A stretch of 64,000 bases of DNA from an uncultured Gemmatimonadales bacterium (GCA_963798085.1 CAWCRS010000002.1:381979-445978); one strand, 5' to 3'. Shown: positions 1 through 64,000, counted from the first letter of the stretch. Program-made: the numbers.

Positions 1-3000
1 GGTAGGGTTCGCCGACAACAGCCAATAGCGCTCGCTCTTCCACGGCGATCCGGTACATGTAGACTGCGGCCAATGGAAGGGTCAGCAGTGCCGCAGACAC
101 CCAGCTGCCCAACGCCATTCCGATCCCGGCATTCAAGATGATTCCCGCCGTGTACGAGGGGTGGCGCAATCGGGTATACGCGCCACGGCCCACAATCTCT
201 TGTTCTGGCCGGGCTTGCACATCCCCCGTGAATGACGAACCGAGCCTGCGCCAACAATGCCTCCGGAAAGGCTCCCCGCTATGAGCAGACCACCCCCGGC
301 ATAGAGCGCGACCACTCTGAGGCCGGTTGGGAATTGCAGGGCCGATACCCACGCGAGGGGAAACAATGCAGGGAAGGCAGGCGACTGGCCGAGCAGCATA
401 ACCTGAAGCGACTTCGCATCGGTAACGCCGTGGGCCCGGCGTGCCCGCTTTATGATGGCACGTTCAGGCCAATAAGCCCACAGGAATACGGCCCAGAACG
501 GCAACGCGTACGGCCAAACGAATGGGAGTGGCTTCATGCCTTCCTTCATGGACCCAGCTGCGGTCATGTGCAGCTACCACCCTCGGCCGGTCAAACTTGT
601 ACATCAGCCTCAAGCCCGTCAACGGCCGCGCGGGTTCATCTCTTGTTGGAGCGCCACGCGCGGGCGCTTGCAGCGTTGCATGACGCCTCGGGGTGCGATC
701 CACGAATCGCGCCCATCCGCCAACCGATCCGTGTCGGAGGAGAACGGAGGTCGCCCACCGCCCCCTCCACAGATCCGGACGTGCAGGATCACCGCATCCG
801 GCGCCTGCCTCAAGTGGTAACGCCGAAGCGCACGAGCGGATACCAGGACGGATTGGGTGCCATGTCAGCCGGTTCCTCGGCCTTGTTCGGCGGCTTCTGC
901 GGTGCTACCAGGCTGTCCGACAACTCGTGCTCGTTCATCACCGGTGTGTGTCCTTGGACTTCCCGGTGCGGTCTGTAAGAAGCTCACTGGCAGACAAGCA
1001 CGAGGTCCCGCGGTTCCCACGTGAGGTGCGTCCATGCATGCACGGGGTCTCTGACCGCGCCGGGTCCCTTCGCGTCTCGCCCAATCGACGCGTCAGGTGT
1101 GGCCTTCCGCTTTGCCCGAGAGCGTCGGCACCCGAATCGCCCGCCATAGGACGGGGAAGCCATTTTCACGGCTCAATACCTGGCCTGCCCTTCCCCTGTC
1201 AACGCTTCGCCGCCACCTCACGAGTGACAACGCATGACGCGGGGCCAATGTGGGTGGCTGCCTTTCAGCGTATGATTCTTTCATTCACAACACTCGACCG
1301 GTTTTGACCGGCGCACCGTGCACCGGCTTTCAGATAACGTCTCGGTTGTTCACGACGTGCCGGAGCCGACCGCCGACGCGACGACGCAGGCATGCCCGCG
1401 CCCTTCCCATGCTGCCCGCCTCGGGCAACTGCGCGGCGAGCGGCCGACGGGCCGCGCGGGGCAATTTTGTGTTAGATCGCGTGCTGCGCCCCCGTTGCGT
1501 CGCCGCTGCACCCTTGTCAATCGACGTGACTGCCTCGCTTCTGCCGTGCATGTCAGTCAGGCGGTGAGTCGACCGCGTTGCGGGCAATGGGCCAGCGGCG
1601 CGATGTCGCGACGACTGCGAGTTGCGCCGACAGCTTCGGCCAACCGGTGTCTTGACCGGCCGGAATGCCTACACGGTAAGGGCCGTTCCCTGACAGTCAC
1701 GGCGACCCCGCGGGTGATCTTGGAAACGGCTCCATGAACCTCGAGGAGGGCGTGAGGACCACTACCGAGCGTGGATCGGACGTCGGCCGGCCCGTTGGTG
1801 GAACGGATACAGCGGCATGCCCGCGAAGACGCTCCTGCTTGCCTGTGGCATTCTCCTGCCCGGCGTTCTGCCGCTCGAGCGACGTCCTCGCGTCTGAACG
1901 ATATGCCGGCCAGTGCTACATCAGGCAATGAGCCAGTTCGTCGCACTCGAGCGCCAACCCGAGCCCCGCGTCGCGTTGGCGGGCAGTGGCGGGCGTGCGG
2001 CGTATGAACCTGGATTGATGGCACTCTCATAACGCAGGAGGTGCCGACGACATGGATCGGGGGCCAGGGAGCGCATGGCCGTCTGCGTCAGTGAGGACCT
2101 CTGGACGATCGTCCTGGGTCGCAGGAGGATTCGACTTGTCACTCCGCAGGATTCTGCTCGGCTGCGGCGTGGTTTCATCGCTTCTCTACGCCGTCGCGAT
2201 CAATGTTCTGGCGCCGCTGGTACACCCGGAATACCACAGCTACACGTATCGAATGGTCAGCGAACTATTCGCCGTCCACGCCCCGACGCGTCCGCTCCTC
2301 GGTCCTCCAATGATCGTCTACAACCTGCTTGTTCTTTCCTTCGCGATCGGCGTGTGGATGTCGGCTCGGGGAAAGCGAGTTACACGATACACAGCCGTGG
2401 CACTGGCTGCATATTTCGTCGTGAGCACAACCGCATGGTTCTTCGCTTCAATGGATGTGCGAGGCACTCCAGGTTTGACGGCGCGCAATGTCGTACATGT
2501 TGCGGCCACAGCTGTGCAGGGAATCGCCATGCTATCGGCACTCGTGCTGGGCGGCTTCGTACACGGGCTGCGGTTCCGTCTCTATACATTCGCGACTCTT
2601 GCGACGTGCGTCGTGTTTGGTGCGTTTGCAGGCCTGCTGGCCGCCGGAAACCCATCTCCGTGGCTTGGAACCGCAGAGCGGGTATCCATCTATGCGTGGC
2701 TGCTATGGGTGGGCGCATTGGCCATCGCATTCCTGCGCGCTCCAGAGGCGAAGCGCACCTCGGCGCCGGCGGCGAGTCTGCAAGGCCCGAAGGCGGAGCG
2801 TGTCAGCTAATGTCTCGGTTGTTCACGACGGGGCGGAGCGGACCGGGGCGGCCCAGGCTTGCCTGGGCCTTCACGGCGCGCGACATCATGCATCGACTGC
2901 CGGCACGGCGGCCGACAGACCGCCGTGCTGAGTGACGTGTTAAATGCAATGGAGTGCGGCGCTGGTATGGACCGGGCTGATGGGTTACAGTCAGGTCCAG

Positions 3001-63000: not shown

Positions 63001-64000
63001 GGGGTGCCTGACAGTCTCGGTGGGCTGACCGATACTTATTTCATGCGCCGCGACTCCCGGGGCCGCTATTACGTGACAAGCGAGTACCGGTCGTGGGCGC
63101 TCTTGGTGTTTGACTCGACTGGACAGTTCCTAACGGTTCATGGCCGCCAAGGCTCGGGGCCCGGCGAATTCCGGCGCATCGAGACATTCGTCTTCGGGAA
63201 GGCGGATACGCTCCACGTATTCGACAGGTTCAATGCACGGCATACTGTGCTTGACGCAAAGAACAACTACGTTTCGGCATCAACTGTTGTGCCTGCGATA
63301 ACAGACGCCATTGTCACTGATGGCGTGCTGATAGTCAACGCTGATATTCCCACCCGCGCGAGCGTGGGCGAGGCACTACACTTCCTATCTGATTCAGGCG
63401 CCGTTTCCTCATTCGATCAGACGGGCGGGCTGTATGACGTCTCAATGAGAACCTCATTGAGAAGAATTCTTTCATCTTCGGATGAAGGCGGGTTCTGGGC
63501 GGCGCACCGGACGCGATACCAGATCGATCTCTGGCGCGTTTTGAATGCCGGAACGCCGAGGCTGGTGAAAGTCATTAAGCGCTCGCCGGACTGGTTCCCA
63601 CCGTATGATCGTGCGACTGCGATTAGCCCCGGGCAGGCGCCGCAGCCATTTATTAGTGGCGTCGCGTCAACTGACCGGCATGAACTATGGGTGGCGAGCT
63701 GCGTTCCATCCGGAAACTGGGAGCGCAACCTGATTGTTCAAGAAACCGCAAGAGGACGTACCTACTCTTACAAGAACGCGGATACCATGTTCGATACCGT
63801 AGTCGACTTGGTTGATACGACGACTGGTGACTTGATCAGCAGCCGGCGCTTCCGGCAGTACTTCAAGGGTTTTCTTAGCCGCGACCTCATTTGGAGCTAT
63901 TCCGAGGATGCCGACGGTGTCGGTAAGATTCAAGTCTGGCGCCTGAGCATCGTTGATAGGAAAAGCCAATCCAAACCGTTTGCCACCCCACAGTAGGAGG

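Follow-up and report, generated by a model that had tools for sequence, protein, structure and literature searches.

What is the long row of structured repeats at the right end of contig C2, and which recombinase serves it? In the window, by which we mean the whole 64,000-nt stretch analysed here (C2 381979-445978; window position 1 is contig position 381,979 and the right edge is the contig end), a preliminary description had read these repeats as attC sites of sedentary chromosomal super-integrons. A first nhmmer profile, built from 12 site copies of the window, detected 63 long sites genome-wide at E<1e-3 (45 on C2, nine on C3, five on C1 and four on C12), and a refined profile detected 65 in the whole genome (C2 45, C3 nine, C1 five, C12 five and C10 one). 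Together with 16 classical sites these make 81, in line with the earlier figure of at least 75 attC sites. The window contains 41 long attC-like sites of about 150-160 nt in a single orientation (46-162 bits, E down to 3e-47), and two others lie immediately to its left (C2:380580 and C2:380912), which reproduces the 43 sites previously counted on C2 380.6-444.2 kb. The array on C2 measures at least 84 kb with its 45 sites. Crossover-to-crossover spacing in the window has a median of about 1.18 kb and a minimum of 353 nt, and the two longest intervals between sites (about 5.8 kb each) contain insertion sequences. The sites are listed in window coordinates with their nhmmer scores (the cassette or top strand is minus; profile matches are on the plus strand).

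1326..1480, minus, long attC site 1 (111.5 bits)
2797..2951, minus, site 2 (76.6 bits)
5057..5195, minus, site 3 (104.4 bits)
6072..6201, minus, site 4, variant 3' half (46.0 bits; repeat family D19)
7217..7367, minus, site 5 (131.5 bits)
8670..8815, minus, site 6 (73.9 bits)
9590..9724, minus, site 7, lacking stem C (78.9 bits; alignment)
12446..12601, minus, site 8 (158.2 bits)
13527..13681, minus, site 9 (145.8 bits)
19353..19509, minus, site 10 (94.8 bits)
20329..20484, minus, site 11 (143.5 bits)
21520..21671, minus, site 12, chimeric relative to site 28 (137.8 bits; alignment)
22696..22853, minus, site 13 (114.4 bits)
24135..24293, minus, site 14 (147.8 bits)
25207..25362, minus, site 15 (117.0 bits)
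26588..26746, minus, site 16 (134.9 bits)
28486..28640, minus, site 17 (135.6 bits)
29903..30054, minus, site 18 (128.1 bits)
31079..31240, minus, site 19 (151.1 bits)
33685..33845, minus, site 20 (150.2 bits)
34763..34913, minus, site 21 (92.6 bits)
36331..36491, minus, site 22 (158.2 bits)
37478..37635, minus, site 23 (102.2 bits)
38892..39052, minus, site 24 (85.5 bits)
39930..40091, minus, site 25 (144.0 bits)
41083..41231, minus, site 26 (89.4 bits)
41996..42152, minus, site 27 (133.1 bits)
43189..43342, minus, site 28 (121.5 bits)
44333..44483, minus, site 29; with 44484-44698 a 353-nt cassette without an ORF of 60 aa or more (110.6 bits)
44686..44844, minus, site 30, top-scoring copy (162.2 bits)
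46051..46210, minus, site 31 (125.0 bits)
47080..47238, minus, site 32 (146.3 bits)
48452..48610, minus, site 33 (146.5 bits)
49710..49864, minus, site 34 (118.2 bits)
51239..51407, minus, site 35, longer inner part (86.6 bits)
52233..52390, minus, site 36 (157.2 bits)
53151..53303, minus, site 37 (124.2 bits)
54146..54307, minus, site 38 (74.6 bits)
55017..55176, minus, site 39 (94.4 bits)
60863..61020, minus, site 40; starts cassette 60876-62069, duplicated on C12 (151.1 bits)
62055..62214, minus, site 41, last before the contig end (157.8 bits)

The long repeats are true cassette sites, as seen from covariation, flank complementarity, the position of duplicate ends in the core and strand-biased folding. 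The R box, the L box and three inner hairpins covary: 95.7% of 1081 cells are paired, a value that none of 500 shuffles attained (shuffle level 89.1%) and that slid controls, with 27-43%, fall far below. Compensatory changes occur in 13 of the 28 pairs of the fold, including three pairs of the 6-bp L helix, and TAAC pairs with GTTA in 38-39 of 39 sites. Classical attC cores read RYYYAAC (R'') and GTTRRRY (R'), with the crossover at G|TT; the outer letters of the long sites (GTTAGAT, GTTATCT, GTTAGCT) match GTTRRRY loosely only. When the outermost 8 nt on the right of a site are compared with the left flank of the following site, they are complementary at 5.6 of 8 positions (n=38), compared with 3.56 of 8 within the same site and 3.46 of 8 for random pairs. 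This complementarity spans the gene between neighbouring sites, as would follow if the R box is reconstituted in the circular cassette. Both informative duplicated cassettes (2/2) have their two ends inside CTAACGT cores, on the left side of sites. One of them (window 60866-62072) is 99.5% identical to C12:1744-2950, and the other (window 44336-44702) is 88.6% identical to C12:7158-7533, where the copy is the integrase-proximal cassette.

In 35 of 41 sites the plus strand gave the more stable fold (mean -41.5 vs -39.1 kcal/mol), and it is therefore taken as the bottom strand. As a single-stranded plus (bottom) strand, the long site folds into an R helix (..CTAAC / GTTAG..), a spacer, the 6-bp L helix and a four-way junction with three hairpins; the minimum free energy fold of the best-scoring copy (site 30) is such a four-way junction. 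Between the R and L boxes lies an unpaired spacer, 10 nt long on the AAC arm and 7 nt long opposite. The L-helix columns (29-34/155-160 of the alignment) show no bulge, and the helix opens directly into the junction. There, one nucleotide of the AAC arm and 4-5 opposite it stay unpaired, a possible substitute for the two or three extrahelical bases that classical sites have near L'', across from the AAC triplet of the bottom strand. The crossover by which cassettes are cut out and rejoined falls at 5'-CTAA|C of the plus strand; read on the coding strand it is G|TTAG, just as integrons have it. A cassette unit comprises one gene or one toxin-antitoxin pair followed by a 150-160-nt site, on the minus strand.

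Among the window ORFs scanned, Pfam confirmed PemK, two PIN genes, HepT/MNT, RES, Phd, Fic/MazE, IS630, IS110 and IS21. Of the 23 cassette ORFs with Pfam support, just 14 are co-directional with the cassettes on the minus strand. The annotated genes and insertion sequences are the following.

2052..2810, plus, DUF998 cassette gene, reversed (Pfam 7.5e-17)
5298..5870, minus, ankyrin-repeat cassette gene (Pfam 1.1e-14)
8895..9221, minus, PemK/MazF-type toxin cassette gene (Pfam 1.3e-31)
11035..12362, minus, IS110-family element inside a cassette (Pfam Transposase_20; 96.8% copy at C3:698110-699435)
12663..13106, minus, PIN-domain cassette gene (Pfam 4.3e-10)
14117..15270, minus, IS630-family element, copy a (Pfam DDE_3; 98.5-99.6% copies on C10, C7 and C2)
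16043..17252, minus, IS630-family element, copy b (Pfam DDE_3 and HTH; copies on C3 and C2)
17620..18798, plus, DUF5128-type beta-propeller inside the IS-laden interval (Pfam 2.6e-07)
21883..22608, minus, SAM methyltransferase cassette gene (Pfam 2.4e-20)
22902..24113, minus, DUF5128-type propeller cassette gene (Pfam 9.1e-06)
24282..25184, minus, APH(6)/hydroxyurea-kinase family cassette gene (Pfam PF04655, 1.2e-40)
25422..26432, minus, Amidohydro_2 cassette gene (Pfam 5.5e-39)
26774..28411, minus, TPR protein cassette gene (Pfam 1.8e-06)
28662..29870, minus, DUF5128-type propeller cassette gene (Pfam 1.2e-04, below cut-off; family scan)
30130..30985, minus, HepT toxin and MNT nucleotidyltransferase pair in one cassette (Pfam 7.5e-24, 2e-16)
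31306..31812, minus, RES-domain toxin in a 2.6-kb multi-gene cassette (Pfam 5.3e-19)
34148..34486, plus, DUF4160 cassette gene, reversed (Pfam 1.8e-16)
35064..36317, plus, DUF5128-type propeller cassette gene, reversed (Pfam 1e-07)
40349..41008, minus, SAM methyltransferase cassette gene (Pfam 3.5e-19)
48686..49641, plus, Phd antitoxin and PIN toxin pair, reversed (Pfam 3.2e-11, 9.4e-15)
49736..51394, minus, open frame with a DUF5128 match (frame limits, not a fixed gene start; PF17170 43.2 bits at C2:432677-432901)
51483..52169, plus, MazE-type antitoxin and Fic-Doc pair, reversed (Pfam 8.6e-10, 9.5e-17)
54605..54958, minus, DUF6883 cassette gene (Pfam 7e-27)
55480..56637, plus, IS630-family element, copy a, inverted (Pfam; blast copies)
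56630..60089, minus, IS630-family copy b, split by an IS21-family element (blast pieces 56630-57482 and 59796-60089)
Within 56630..60089, plus, IS21-family insert, istA 57597-58910 and istB up to 59752 (Pfam Mu-transpos_C_2/rve, IstB)
62689..63996, plus, DUF5128-type propeller, reversed, stop 4 nt from the contig end (Pfam 7.5e-10)

A group II intron is also present in the array, as an attC-targeting element beside IS110 and IS630. The DUF5128 propellers reported in cassettes were found again, six in the Pfam scan and a seventh from the genome scan. Of 37 DUF5128 matches, 6-7 lie in the array; the earlier idea that it feeds this propeller family is conjectural.

No tyrosine recombinase was detected among the 133 window ORFs scanned. 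The array enzyme is probably an IntI-like tyrosine recombinase on C12, whose gene (stop at C12:7882) is transcribed towards the cassettes. The array boundary, 350 nt past the stop, is a lone CAGCTAA|CGTT core, a putative attI-like site. The protein scores 219.7 bits on TIGR02249, under the cut-off of 265; it matches model positions 2-179 and 235-313 only, leaving 180-234 unmatched. Relative to VchIntIA (2a3v), chain residues 179-240 correspond to just 20 residues of the C12 protein, with about 42 residues missing, and the alignment shows this gap at the IntI-specific insertion. The columns of the catalytic R, K, H-x-x-R, H and Y are invariant. In IntI, this insertion contacts the extrahelical bases. 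With these residues missing, the C12 recombinase falls outside the accepted definition of IntI. In the available part of Cury et al. 2016 (PMC4889954), insertion-less recombinases near attC sites are not counted as IntI, and Messier & Roy 2001, as quoted in the available part of PMC9668308, found the insertion necessary for IntI activity; both statements count against service of the array by the C12 enzyme. The Xer cut-offs are not reached either (XerA_Arch 200.7 vs 220, XerC 175.6 vs 335, XerD 167.8 vs 330). Foldseek matched the fold of the C12 protein to XerA (5hxy, E 1e-15) and IntI4 (2a3v, E 8.5e-15).

The C12 protein also has an extra small N-terminal domain (beta-beta-alpha-beta-beta-alpha). 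Foldseek placed the SMARCAL1 HARP domain (4o66) at rank 2 (E 0.29, TM 0.35), and the best VIA-wide matches were ACT-like domains (Z 6.2). Two homologues matched Pfam HARP (PF07443) below its threshold (18.1 and 18.4 bits vs 25), and the C12 protein did not match it. In a tree built with FastTree only, IntI (support 100) and the short type together split from the XerC/D of this genome (98), and the short-type group has a support of 88. The C12 recombinase appears to belong to a sister group of the integron integrases, without the insertion of about 35-42 residues and with the small N-terminal domain instead; correspondingly, no bulged bases are seen in the L helix of its presumed sites.

Homologues of this recombinase are carried by 42 of the 201 genomes of the order. 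For those 45-58% identical to the C12 protein, 16 loci were examined, and in 14 of them a similar array of long sites begins shortly downstream of the gene (15 fetched, 13 of them with an array, and one with an array from another family, G418); the two loci without an array have less than 3 kb of sequence downstream of the gene. The relatives' arrays are one-directional, consist of 150-190-nt YTAAC...GTTA sites and start 312-4265 nt downstream of the gene. In all 14 loci with enough downstream sequence, the gene is found at the array's upstream end and is co-directional with it. The long attC family had been proposed as species-specific. As a class it is not, since in relatives of the order and in one genome of another family the same architecture, with a different sequence in each, adjoins homologous recombinases. 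No TIGR02249 match at E<=1e-40 was found in 29 of the 42 carrier genomes, including the single-contig G081 and G106 and the three-contig G130, each of which has long-site arrays. When 79 loci from many phyla, with recombinases at 31-52% identity, were scanned more broadly, most had no repeat array detectable by blastn, and the association of recombinase and array is therefore shown for this clade only. The wider recombinase family is huge, and proteins 44-56% identical occur in other phyla and in archaea.

The genome also encodes a canonical integrase on C1. This IntI is intact and passes TIGR02249 (409.6-409.9 bits, cut-off 265) with the 16 classical attC sites alongside, which have two extra L'' bases, and its description as a bona fide integron integrase heading an array holds. 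Both recombinase genes point towards their own array, as had been stated. C1 also carries five long sites, at a distance of 28 kb past IntI, and IntI may on this account act on the long sites in trans. The right end of C2 plausibly continues into the left end of C12, and orientation allows the C2 end to join the C1 end equally well. No overlap between contig ends was found in the assembly, and any number or size given for the integrons is therefore provisional.

The window is the main body of a sedentary chromosomal cassette array of integron-like build. We consider it probable that a C12-type recombinase serves this array, as a second integron type that would coexist with the canonical integron (IntI and 16 classical sites) on C1. 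Alternatively, the array could be an ordinary CALIN, or it could belong to the canonical integron as its distal portion, the C1 IntI serving both site families and the C12 recombinase being an unrelated neighbour. The intact IntI, the long sites downstream of it on the same contig, the permitted join of C1 and C2 ends and the presence of a TIGR02249 match in 13 of the 42 carrier genomes are in keeping with this, as is the statement in the available part of PMC5027507 that IntIs accept very different attC sequences. However, the 16 kb after IntI hold 16/16 classical and 0/65 long sites of this genome (G000), and on C1 the two kinds are set apart by about 12 kb of genes, one of them for a MacB-type permease, in which no site was detected. 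Arrays of the same architecture follow the short recombinase in seven genomes without a TIGR02249 match at E<=1e-40 (two of them single-contig), and the long sites show no L-box bulges of the kind bound by the IntI insertion. We regard service by the C1 IntI as possible but rather unlikely.

That the C12 recombinase is instead the leftover integrase of an attC-targeting mobile element (e.g. IS91-type with an upstream tyrosine recombinase) and does not serve the array seems improbable. The size of its family, spread over many phyla, its many broad-scan members near contig ends without visible arrays and the group II intron, IS110 and IS630 in the array would suit such an origin, but no IS91 transposase is encoded by the 19 ORFs that surround the C12 gene, the adjoining array boundary is a simple core site, and an insertion would land randomly and not always at the upstream, co-directional end found in 14/14 loci. 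The lack of a Y2_Tnp (PF04986) match in the genome is a weak argument, as a control search also matched nowhere. Another dispersed structured repeat (REP-like or terminator) could likewise be GC-rich, structured, intergenic and unidirectional. Yet the CTAAC/GTTAG core, the complementarity of cassette ends across each gene, the duplication of whole cassettes with ends in the core, a cargo typical of cassettes (toxin-antitoxin pairs and small accessory genes) and a GC content below that of the rest of the genome make repeats other than recombination sites very hard to credit.

The preferred reading, a cassette array served by the C12-type recombinase, retains from the super-integron proposal a real chromosomal cassette array of exceptional size; this array is not a super-integron of the known kind, as the C12 recombinase does not pass the test by which IntI is defined. 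An integron in Gemmatimonadota is not new either, as the available part of PMC8618304 already lists the phylum. In the literature searched, we found no published description of an insertion-less recombinase with long-site arrays. A wider proposal, about as likely as not, is an old second integron type, in which an IntI sister clade without the patch-III insertion and with a small N-terminal domain captures and shuffles cassettes via long branched attC sites without classical extrahelical bases. If true, the "defining" IntI domain would be dispensable for single-strand attC recombination, and many large "integrase-less" arrays in Gemmatimonadota, perhaps also in other phyla and archaea, would be complete, active integrons.

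Among known systems, the array resembles sedentary chromosomal integrons, such as the superintegron of Vibrio cholerae (VCR sites), in being a long chromosomal row of promoter-less cassettes, toxin-antitoxin cassettes among them. It shares with them one homogeneous, host-specific long attC family, a crossover at G|TT of R', R and L boxes that pair around a central spacer left unpaired, and favoured bottom-strand folding. It differs in site length (150-160 nt vs 57-141 bp) and spacer (10/7 nt vs usually 5-6), by the values in the available part of PMC5027507, in an inner four-way junction where those sites form an imperfect hairpin, in an L helix in which no bulged bases were seen, and in the enzyme, since the recombinase adjoining the long sites on C12 lacks the IntI insertion. 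The inverted-integrase group of Treponema and others, in the part of Cury et al. 2016 (PMC4889954) available, likewise has an integrase gene co-directional with the cassettes and an insertion site past its 3' end, but its integrases are IntI with the insertion, which in this genome is true of the C1 enzyme only. XerA, XerC and XerD share the short patch-III region and, for XerA, the fold; the C12 protein differs in falling below the model cut-offs, in occurring in only 42/201 order genomes, in its extra N-terminal domain and in adjoining cassette arrays. Under the definitions now in use, the C2 array counts as a CALIN or else as a non-canonical integron, because the C12 recombinase lacks the IntI-specific insertion. 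CALINs are attC clusters without an integron integrase, and the IntegronFinder rule (PF00589 plus intI_Cterm), as given in the available part of Cury et al. 2016 (PMC4889954), would file the array there: it has at least two attC sites with no IntI in reach, no integrase lies inside the window, and the nearest candidate recombinase lacks the IntI region. Unlike CALINs, however, the array is far above the typical size, and its class of sites is consistently headed in relatives by one IntI-like clade.

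On contig C2, of which the window spans 381979-445978, lies a genuine integron-type cassette array of very large size. A repeat search detected a direct element of 150–185 nt, in families of 10–29 copies, spread over the whole window. Using a profile built from 12 copies, we identified 63 of these long attC-like sites at E<1e-3 in the 6.23-Mb genome (45 on C2, nine on C3, five on C1 and four on C12), and the refined profile gave 65 (C2, 45; C3, nine; C1, five; C12, five; C10, one). Within the window are 41 long sites, all in a single orientation and scoring 46–162 bits; with two more immediately left of the window they account for the 43 sites of the preliminary description. 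The crossover-to-crossover distance has a median of ~1.18 kb. The smallest window cassette measures 353 nt and lacks an ORF of at least 60 aa, while IS elements occupy both ~5.8-kb intervals between window sites. GC content is 0.59–0.67 in the window versus 0.64–0.68 for the contigs. Rfam holds no attC family, and its sole match in the window was a group II intron. At window position (w) ~10262-10290, 540 nt past site 7 and upstream of an IS110 element, we found a lone site 3' end (GAAATGACGTGTTAGACG...) whose 5' part is absent, probably a truncated site.

Read on the plus strand, a long site has the form 5'-..CAGCTAAC / GTCTCGGTTG / TTCACG / three hairpins / CGTGAA / ATGRCGT / GTTAGRYG-3', and RNAalifold, run on 39 window sites, predicted an L helix and three inner hairpins. 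With the R core included, 95.7% of 1081 cells are paired, versus 89.1% in shuffles (0 of 500 as high) and 27–43% in slid controls; compensatory changes were seen in 13 of the 28 pairs (e.g. TTCACG/CGTGAA, TTCATG/CATGAA and TTGCCG/CGGCAA). The 8 nt past GTTA at the right end of one site are complementary to the left flank of the next site at 5.6 of 8 positions (n=38; controls, 3.56 within the same site and 3.46 for random pairs), the outcome expected if the cassette forms a circle in which the R box is restored. A search for the reverse-complement partner of the R' 13-mer succeeded downstream of 17 of 39 window sites and upstream of 2 of 39; it informs on cassette structure and not on strand orientation. 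The cassette at w60866-62072 recurs at C12:1744-2950 with 99.5% identity; its neighbours differ, and the limits of identity fall inside the common CTAACGT. An ORF-less cassette (w44336-44702) is present again at C12:7158-7533 (88.6%), with ends of the same kind. Because of the flank and duplicated-cassette results, we conclude that the site body moves with the gene to its right. Exchange takes place at CTAA|C of the plus strand.

We assign minus as the cassette (top) strand and plus as the bottom strand. Of 41 sites, 35 fold more stably on the plus strand (mean -41.5 kcal/mol, against -39.1 on the minus strand), and G-T pairs are conserved (36/39 at one stem position) where the opposite strand would have A-C mismatches. 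Two sites, w21520-21671 and w43189-43342, share the same sequence for two thirds of their length and differ in their 3' thirds, with the flank beyond identical again; they follow a duplicated cassette (20332-21683 and 41999-43354, 97.7%). This sequence pattern points to exchange within sites, or gene conversion, in addition to crossover at the core.

Cargo was assigned from Pfam over 133 window ORFs, and 14 of the 23 Pfam-supported ORFs are co-directional with the cassettes.

Cargo, insertions and intron in the window
Minus strand: ankyrin, PemK, PIN, two methyltransferases, two DUF5128 propellers
Minus strand, continued: APH(6)/hydroxyurea-kinase family, Amidohydro_2, TPR protein, HepT/MNT, RES, DUF6883
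Plus strand: DUF998, DUF4160, three DUF5128 propellers, Phd/PIN, MazE/Fic
Insertions: IS110; four IS630 (one split by IS21); an IS3-type remnant
w744-1290, minus strand: group II intron, apparently ORF-less (Rfam D1-D4, 138.8 bits at 1045-1279)

Of the toxin-antitoxin genes reported in the preliminary description, PemK, MazE/Fic, HepT/MNT, PIN and RES were recovered by Pfam, as were its IS630, IS110 and IS21 insertions. The DUF5128 propeller family (PF17170) has 37 HMM matches at E<=0.001 genome-wide, six of them inside the window, and BLAST with the last propeller gene returned one paralogue only at E<=1e-10. The gene at w24282-25184 (minus) belongs to the aminoglycoside/hydroxyurea resistance kinase family (PF04655, 1.2e-40), an environmental resistance-like gene in a chromosomal cassette. 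An IS630-family pair is present twice, 40 kb apart (w14117-17252 and w55480-60089); one member is inverted, and an IS21-family element interrupts one copy of the second pair. These copies could mediate inversion or deletion of the intervening 40 kb. The intron, single-copy in the genome, follows directly on the R' end of site 1 plus a short hairpin. It has a weak domain V/VI match (744-806, 23.4 bits, under the gathering threshold), and we take it to resemble the attC-targeting class C introns.

Cassettes of ~340–355 nt were found at w44345-44698, at C12:7167-7533 (integrase-proximal) and, about a dozen in a row, in a genome from another family (G418; locus L149, 9.6-17.8 kb); they might encode a small RNA, carry a promoter or act as a decoy. 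The C12 array also contains a 2.4-kb SMC/AAA ATPase and a patatin. Amid the five long sites of C1 (C1:477892-480538; L145, 12893-15536) we detected an EcoRI-type adenine methyltransferase (4e-123) and a GmrSD-type endonuclease, which from their sequences would be defence genes carried as cassettes.

The same genome encodes a canonical integron. The C1 integrase (C1:447332-448435, plus strand) scores 409.6 bits with the integron integrase model TIGR02249, whose cut-off is 265 bits, in agreement with its earlier description as a bona fide IntI. The classical array that it was said to head is there as well: 16 sites of ~105–135 nt, all at C1:449.3-464.0 kb, lie directly past the gene, the first cassette boundary ~190 nt past intI. 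These sites have two extra L'' bases (GGT[G]AAGCTG[T]C versus GGTAAGCTGC). This interval contains no long site (0 of 65), and the five long sites of C1 (476-482 kb) are preceded by ~12 kb in which no site was detected and which includes a MacB-type permease. A structure-only scan for classical attC yielded six sites versus none in controls under strict settings, and nine versus 2–10 per 36 kb in controls under loose settings; it was replaced by a profile.

The recombinase on C12 is of a different, short type. Its gene is on the minus strand with the stop at 7882, and the array terminates at a single CAGCTAA|CGTT core 350 nt past that stop, a layout like that of the C1 integron. Only positions 2-179 and 235-313 of TIGR02249 match the protein (219.7 bits, cut-off 265), and XerA_Arch gives 200.7 bits (cut-off 220). 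Residues 179-240 of VchIntIA (2a3v) correspond to just 20 residues of the C12 protein, and, when aligned with the C1 IntI, this protein and 12 homologues lack two segments of the latter (~28+3 and 10 residues). Invariant in the alignment are the columns R, K, H-x-x-R, H and Y, presumably the catalytic residues of tyrosine recombinases. The AlphaFold model (mean pLDDT 85) is about equally like XerA (5hxy, E 1e-15) and IntI4 (2a3v, E 8.5e-15).

The gene model 7882-9030 proposed earlier has the same stop, and its ATG start cuts an N-terminal domain. The frame upstream of this ATG encodes a conserved domain of ~65 residues, predicted to fold as beta-beta-alpha-beta-beta-alpha (pLDDT 92-97), and a GTG at C12:9279 is the only in-frame candidate start in 70 codons scanned upstream of the domain. 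The VIA-wide top matches of the domain are ACT-like (Z 6.2). HARP is at most a possible identity: Pfam matches were sub-threshold and in two homologues only, and HARP ranked second in Foldseek with an E-value of 0.29.

The family of the C12 protein has at least 7899 members at E<=1e-20, from 8000 candidates scored. Among the matches listed, identity is 50–71% (44–56% for the named ones in the alignment); they carry the names XerD or 'tyrosine recombinase/integron integrase' and come from Gemmatimonadetes, Longimicrobiales, Dehalococcoidia, Latescibacteria and archaea. In a FastTree phylogeny of 139 rows, IntI form one clade (support 100) with a motif spacing of 109-110 in 20 of 21 rows, one row being without a measurement, and a group of 111 rows, mostly of the short type (spacing 65-72), has support 88. 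Jointly, IntI and the short-type group stand apart from the XerC/D of this genome (support 98). A clade of 54 rows (support 95) unites the C12 protein with 28 of the order's 29 homologues in the tree (all but L033) and with some from other phyla. Tallies and tree take in five unpublished genomes (G078, G153, G002, G095 and G030), and array context comes from the other genomes.

Within the order, 42 of 201 genomes have a homologue at E<=1e-60 (42–61% identical), and across the phylum 13 of 301 do, all from this order except two in one further family. We found a one-directional array of 150–190-nt sites, starting 312–4265 nt downstream of the gene, in 13 of 15 fetched contexts; both array-less contexts have less than 3 kb of sequence downstream. 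A 16th locus, in G418, has 20 sites. On the gene strand, the relatives' sites read YTAAC, a short spacer, L'', a branched inner part, L', a spacer 2–3 nt longer, and GTTA, with the same spacer asymmetry as the top strand of the long sites described here. The reverse complement of the R' 13-mer lies downstream at 55 of their 95 sites and upstream at 11 of 95; this partner search replaced a per-locus flank test that was noisy with single-seed profiles. TIGR02249 exceeds its cut-off in 39 of presumably the same 201 genomes (same handles) and reaches E<=1e-40 in 50 of them, and 29 of the 42 short-type carriers have no match at E<=1e-40. The same is true of 7 of the 12 order genomes in which arrays were seen (G081 and G106, each a single contig, and G130, G021, G033, G036 and G066), the IntI search covering the genomes of the order. 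In G096, which also has a short-type recombinase and an array, a bona fide intI at C2:1322-2267 is spread over two adjacent frames, both under the cut-off, and its sequence suggests possibly a decaying canonical integrase next to a working short-type system.

A broad scan of species genomes yielded distant relatives (31–52% identity), mostly without blastn-visible arrays, by a repeat detector that is blind to classical, sequence-diverse attC sites. This result neither widens nor narrows the association of gene and array, which is established in this clade only. Many distant members in various phyla (L064-L142) have a contig end 0–2 kb away on the 3' side, which would fit assembly-breaking repeat arrays.

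We consider it fairly likely that the array is part of a non-canonical integron with an integrase devoid of the IntI insertion, coexisting with the canonical integron in the same genome. That the C12 recombinase stems from an IS91-type element was also considered: an IS91 transposase was found neither nearby nor elsewhere in the genome, which counts against a mobile-element reading; in the genome-wide search the control matched nothing either. An overlap between contig ends, sought as proof of the joins, was not found, and orientation allows either pairing of the upstream pieces (C12 left, C1 right) with the downstream pieces (C2 right, C3 right). The best public run, a soil metagenome, contains 0.42 of the sampled words; the short, low-depth Logan contigs from public runs, uninformative on joins and excision, gave no bridging piece, cassette-skipping joint or usable loose end.

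The preliminary description put forward an integron of this size in Gemmatimonadota as new; the phylum is already among those listed with integrons by Ghaly et al. 2021 (PMC8618304). The additional domain is described as a defining feature of IntI that is needed for recombination (Ghaly et al. 2022, PMC9668308, citing Messier & Roy 2001). In the survey of Cury et al. 2016 (PMC4889954), just 50 PF00589 proteins near attC sites lacked the insertion, four of which, each near fewer than three sites, fell between IntI and Xer, and such proteins were judged not to be IntI. Our search of literature listings on attC in Gemmatimonadota, on attC with tyrosine recombinases and HARP, and on integron-like Xer-type recombinases did not find the present pairing described. 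Integron surveys rest on two signatures, the IntI insertion and the classical attC model. If an insertion-less clade runs arrays of 40-plus cassettes, such surveys undercount integrons and class these arrays as orphan clusters. Extrahelical bases held by the insertion would then not be the sole way to recognise folded single-stranded sites and their strand, and two systems with their own site families in one genome would offer a natural setting in which to examine specificity and cross-talk. The array also reveals the swappable cargo of one soil Gemmatimonadota bacterium: toxin-antitoxin modules, methyltransferases, an aminoglycoside/hydroxyurea-family kinase and many DUF5128 propellers.

Classical attC sites are 57–141 bp long and have spacers of 5–6 nt; the arm facing the bottom-strand AAC triplet carries two or three extrahelical bases close to L'' (Nivina et al. 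2016, PMC5027507). The long sites, in contrast, measure 150–160 nt, have spacers of 10 and 7 nt and an L helix without a bulge, and place a four-way junction right behind that helix. Unpaired linker bases at this junction (1 nt on the AAC arm and 4–5 on the other) might, in the predicted fold, take the place of the extrahelical bases.
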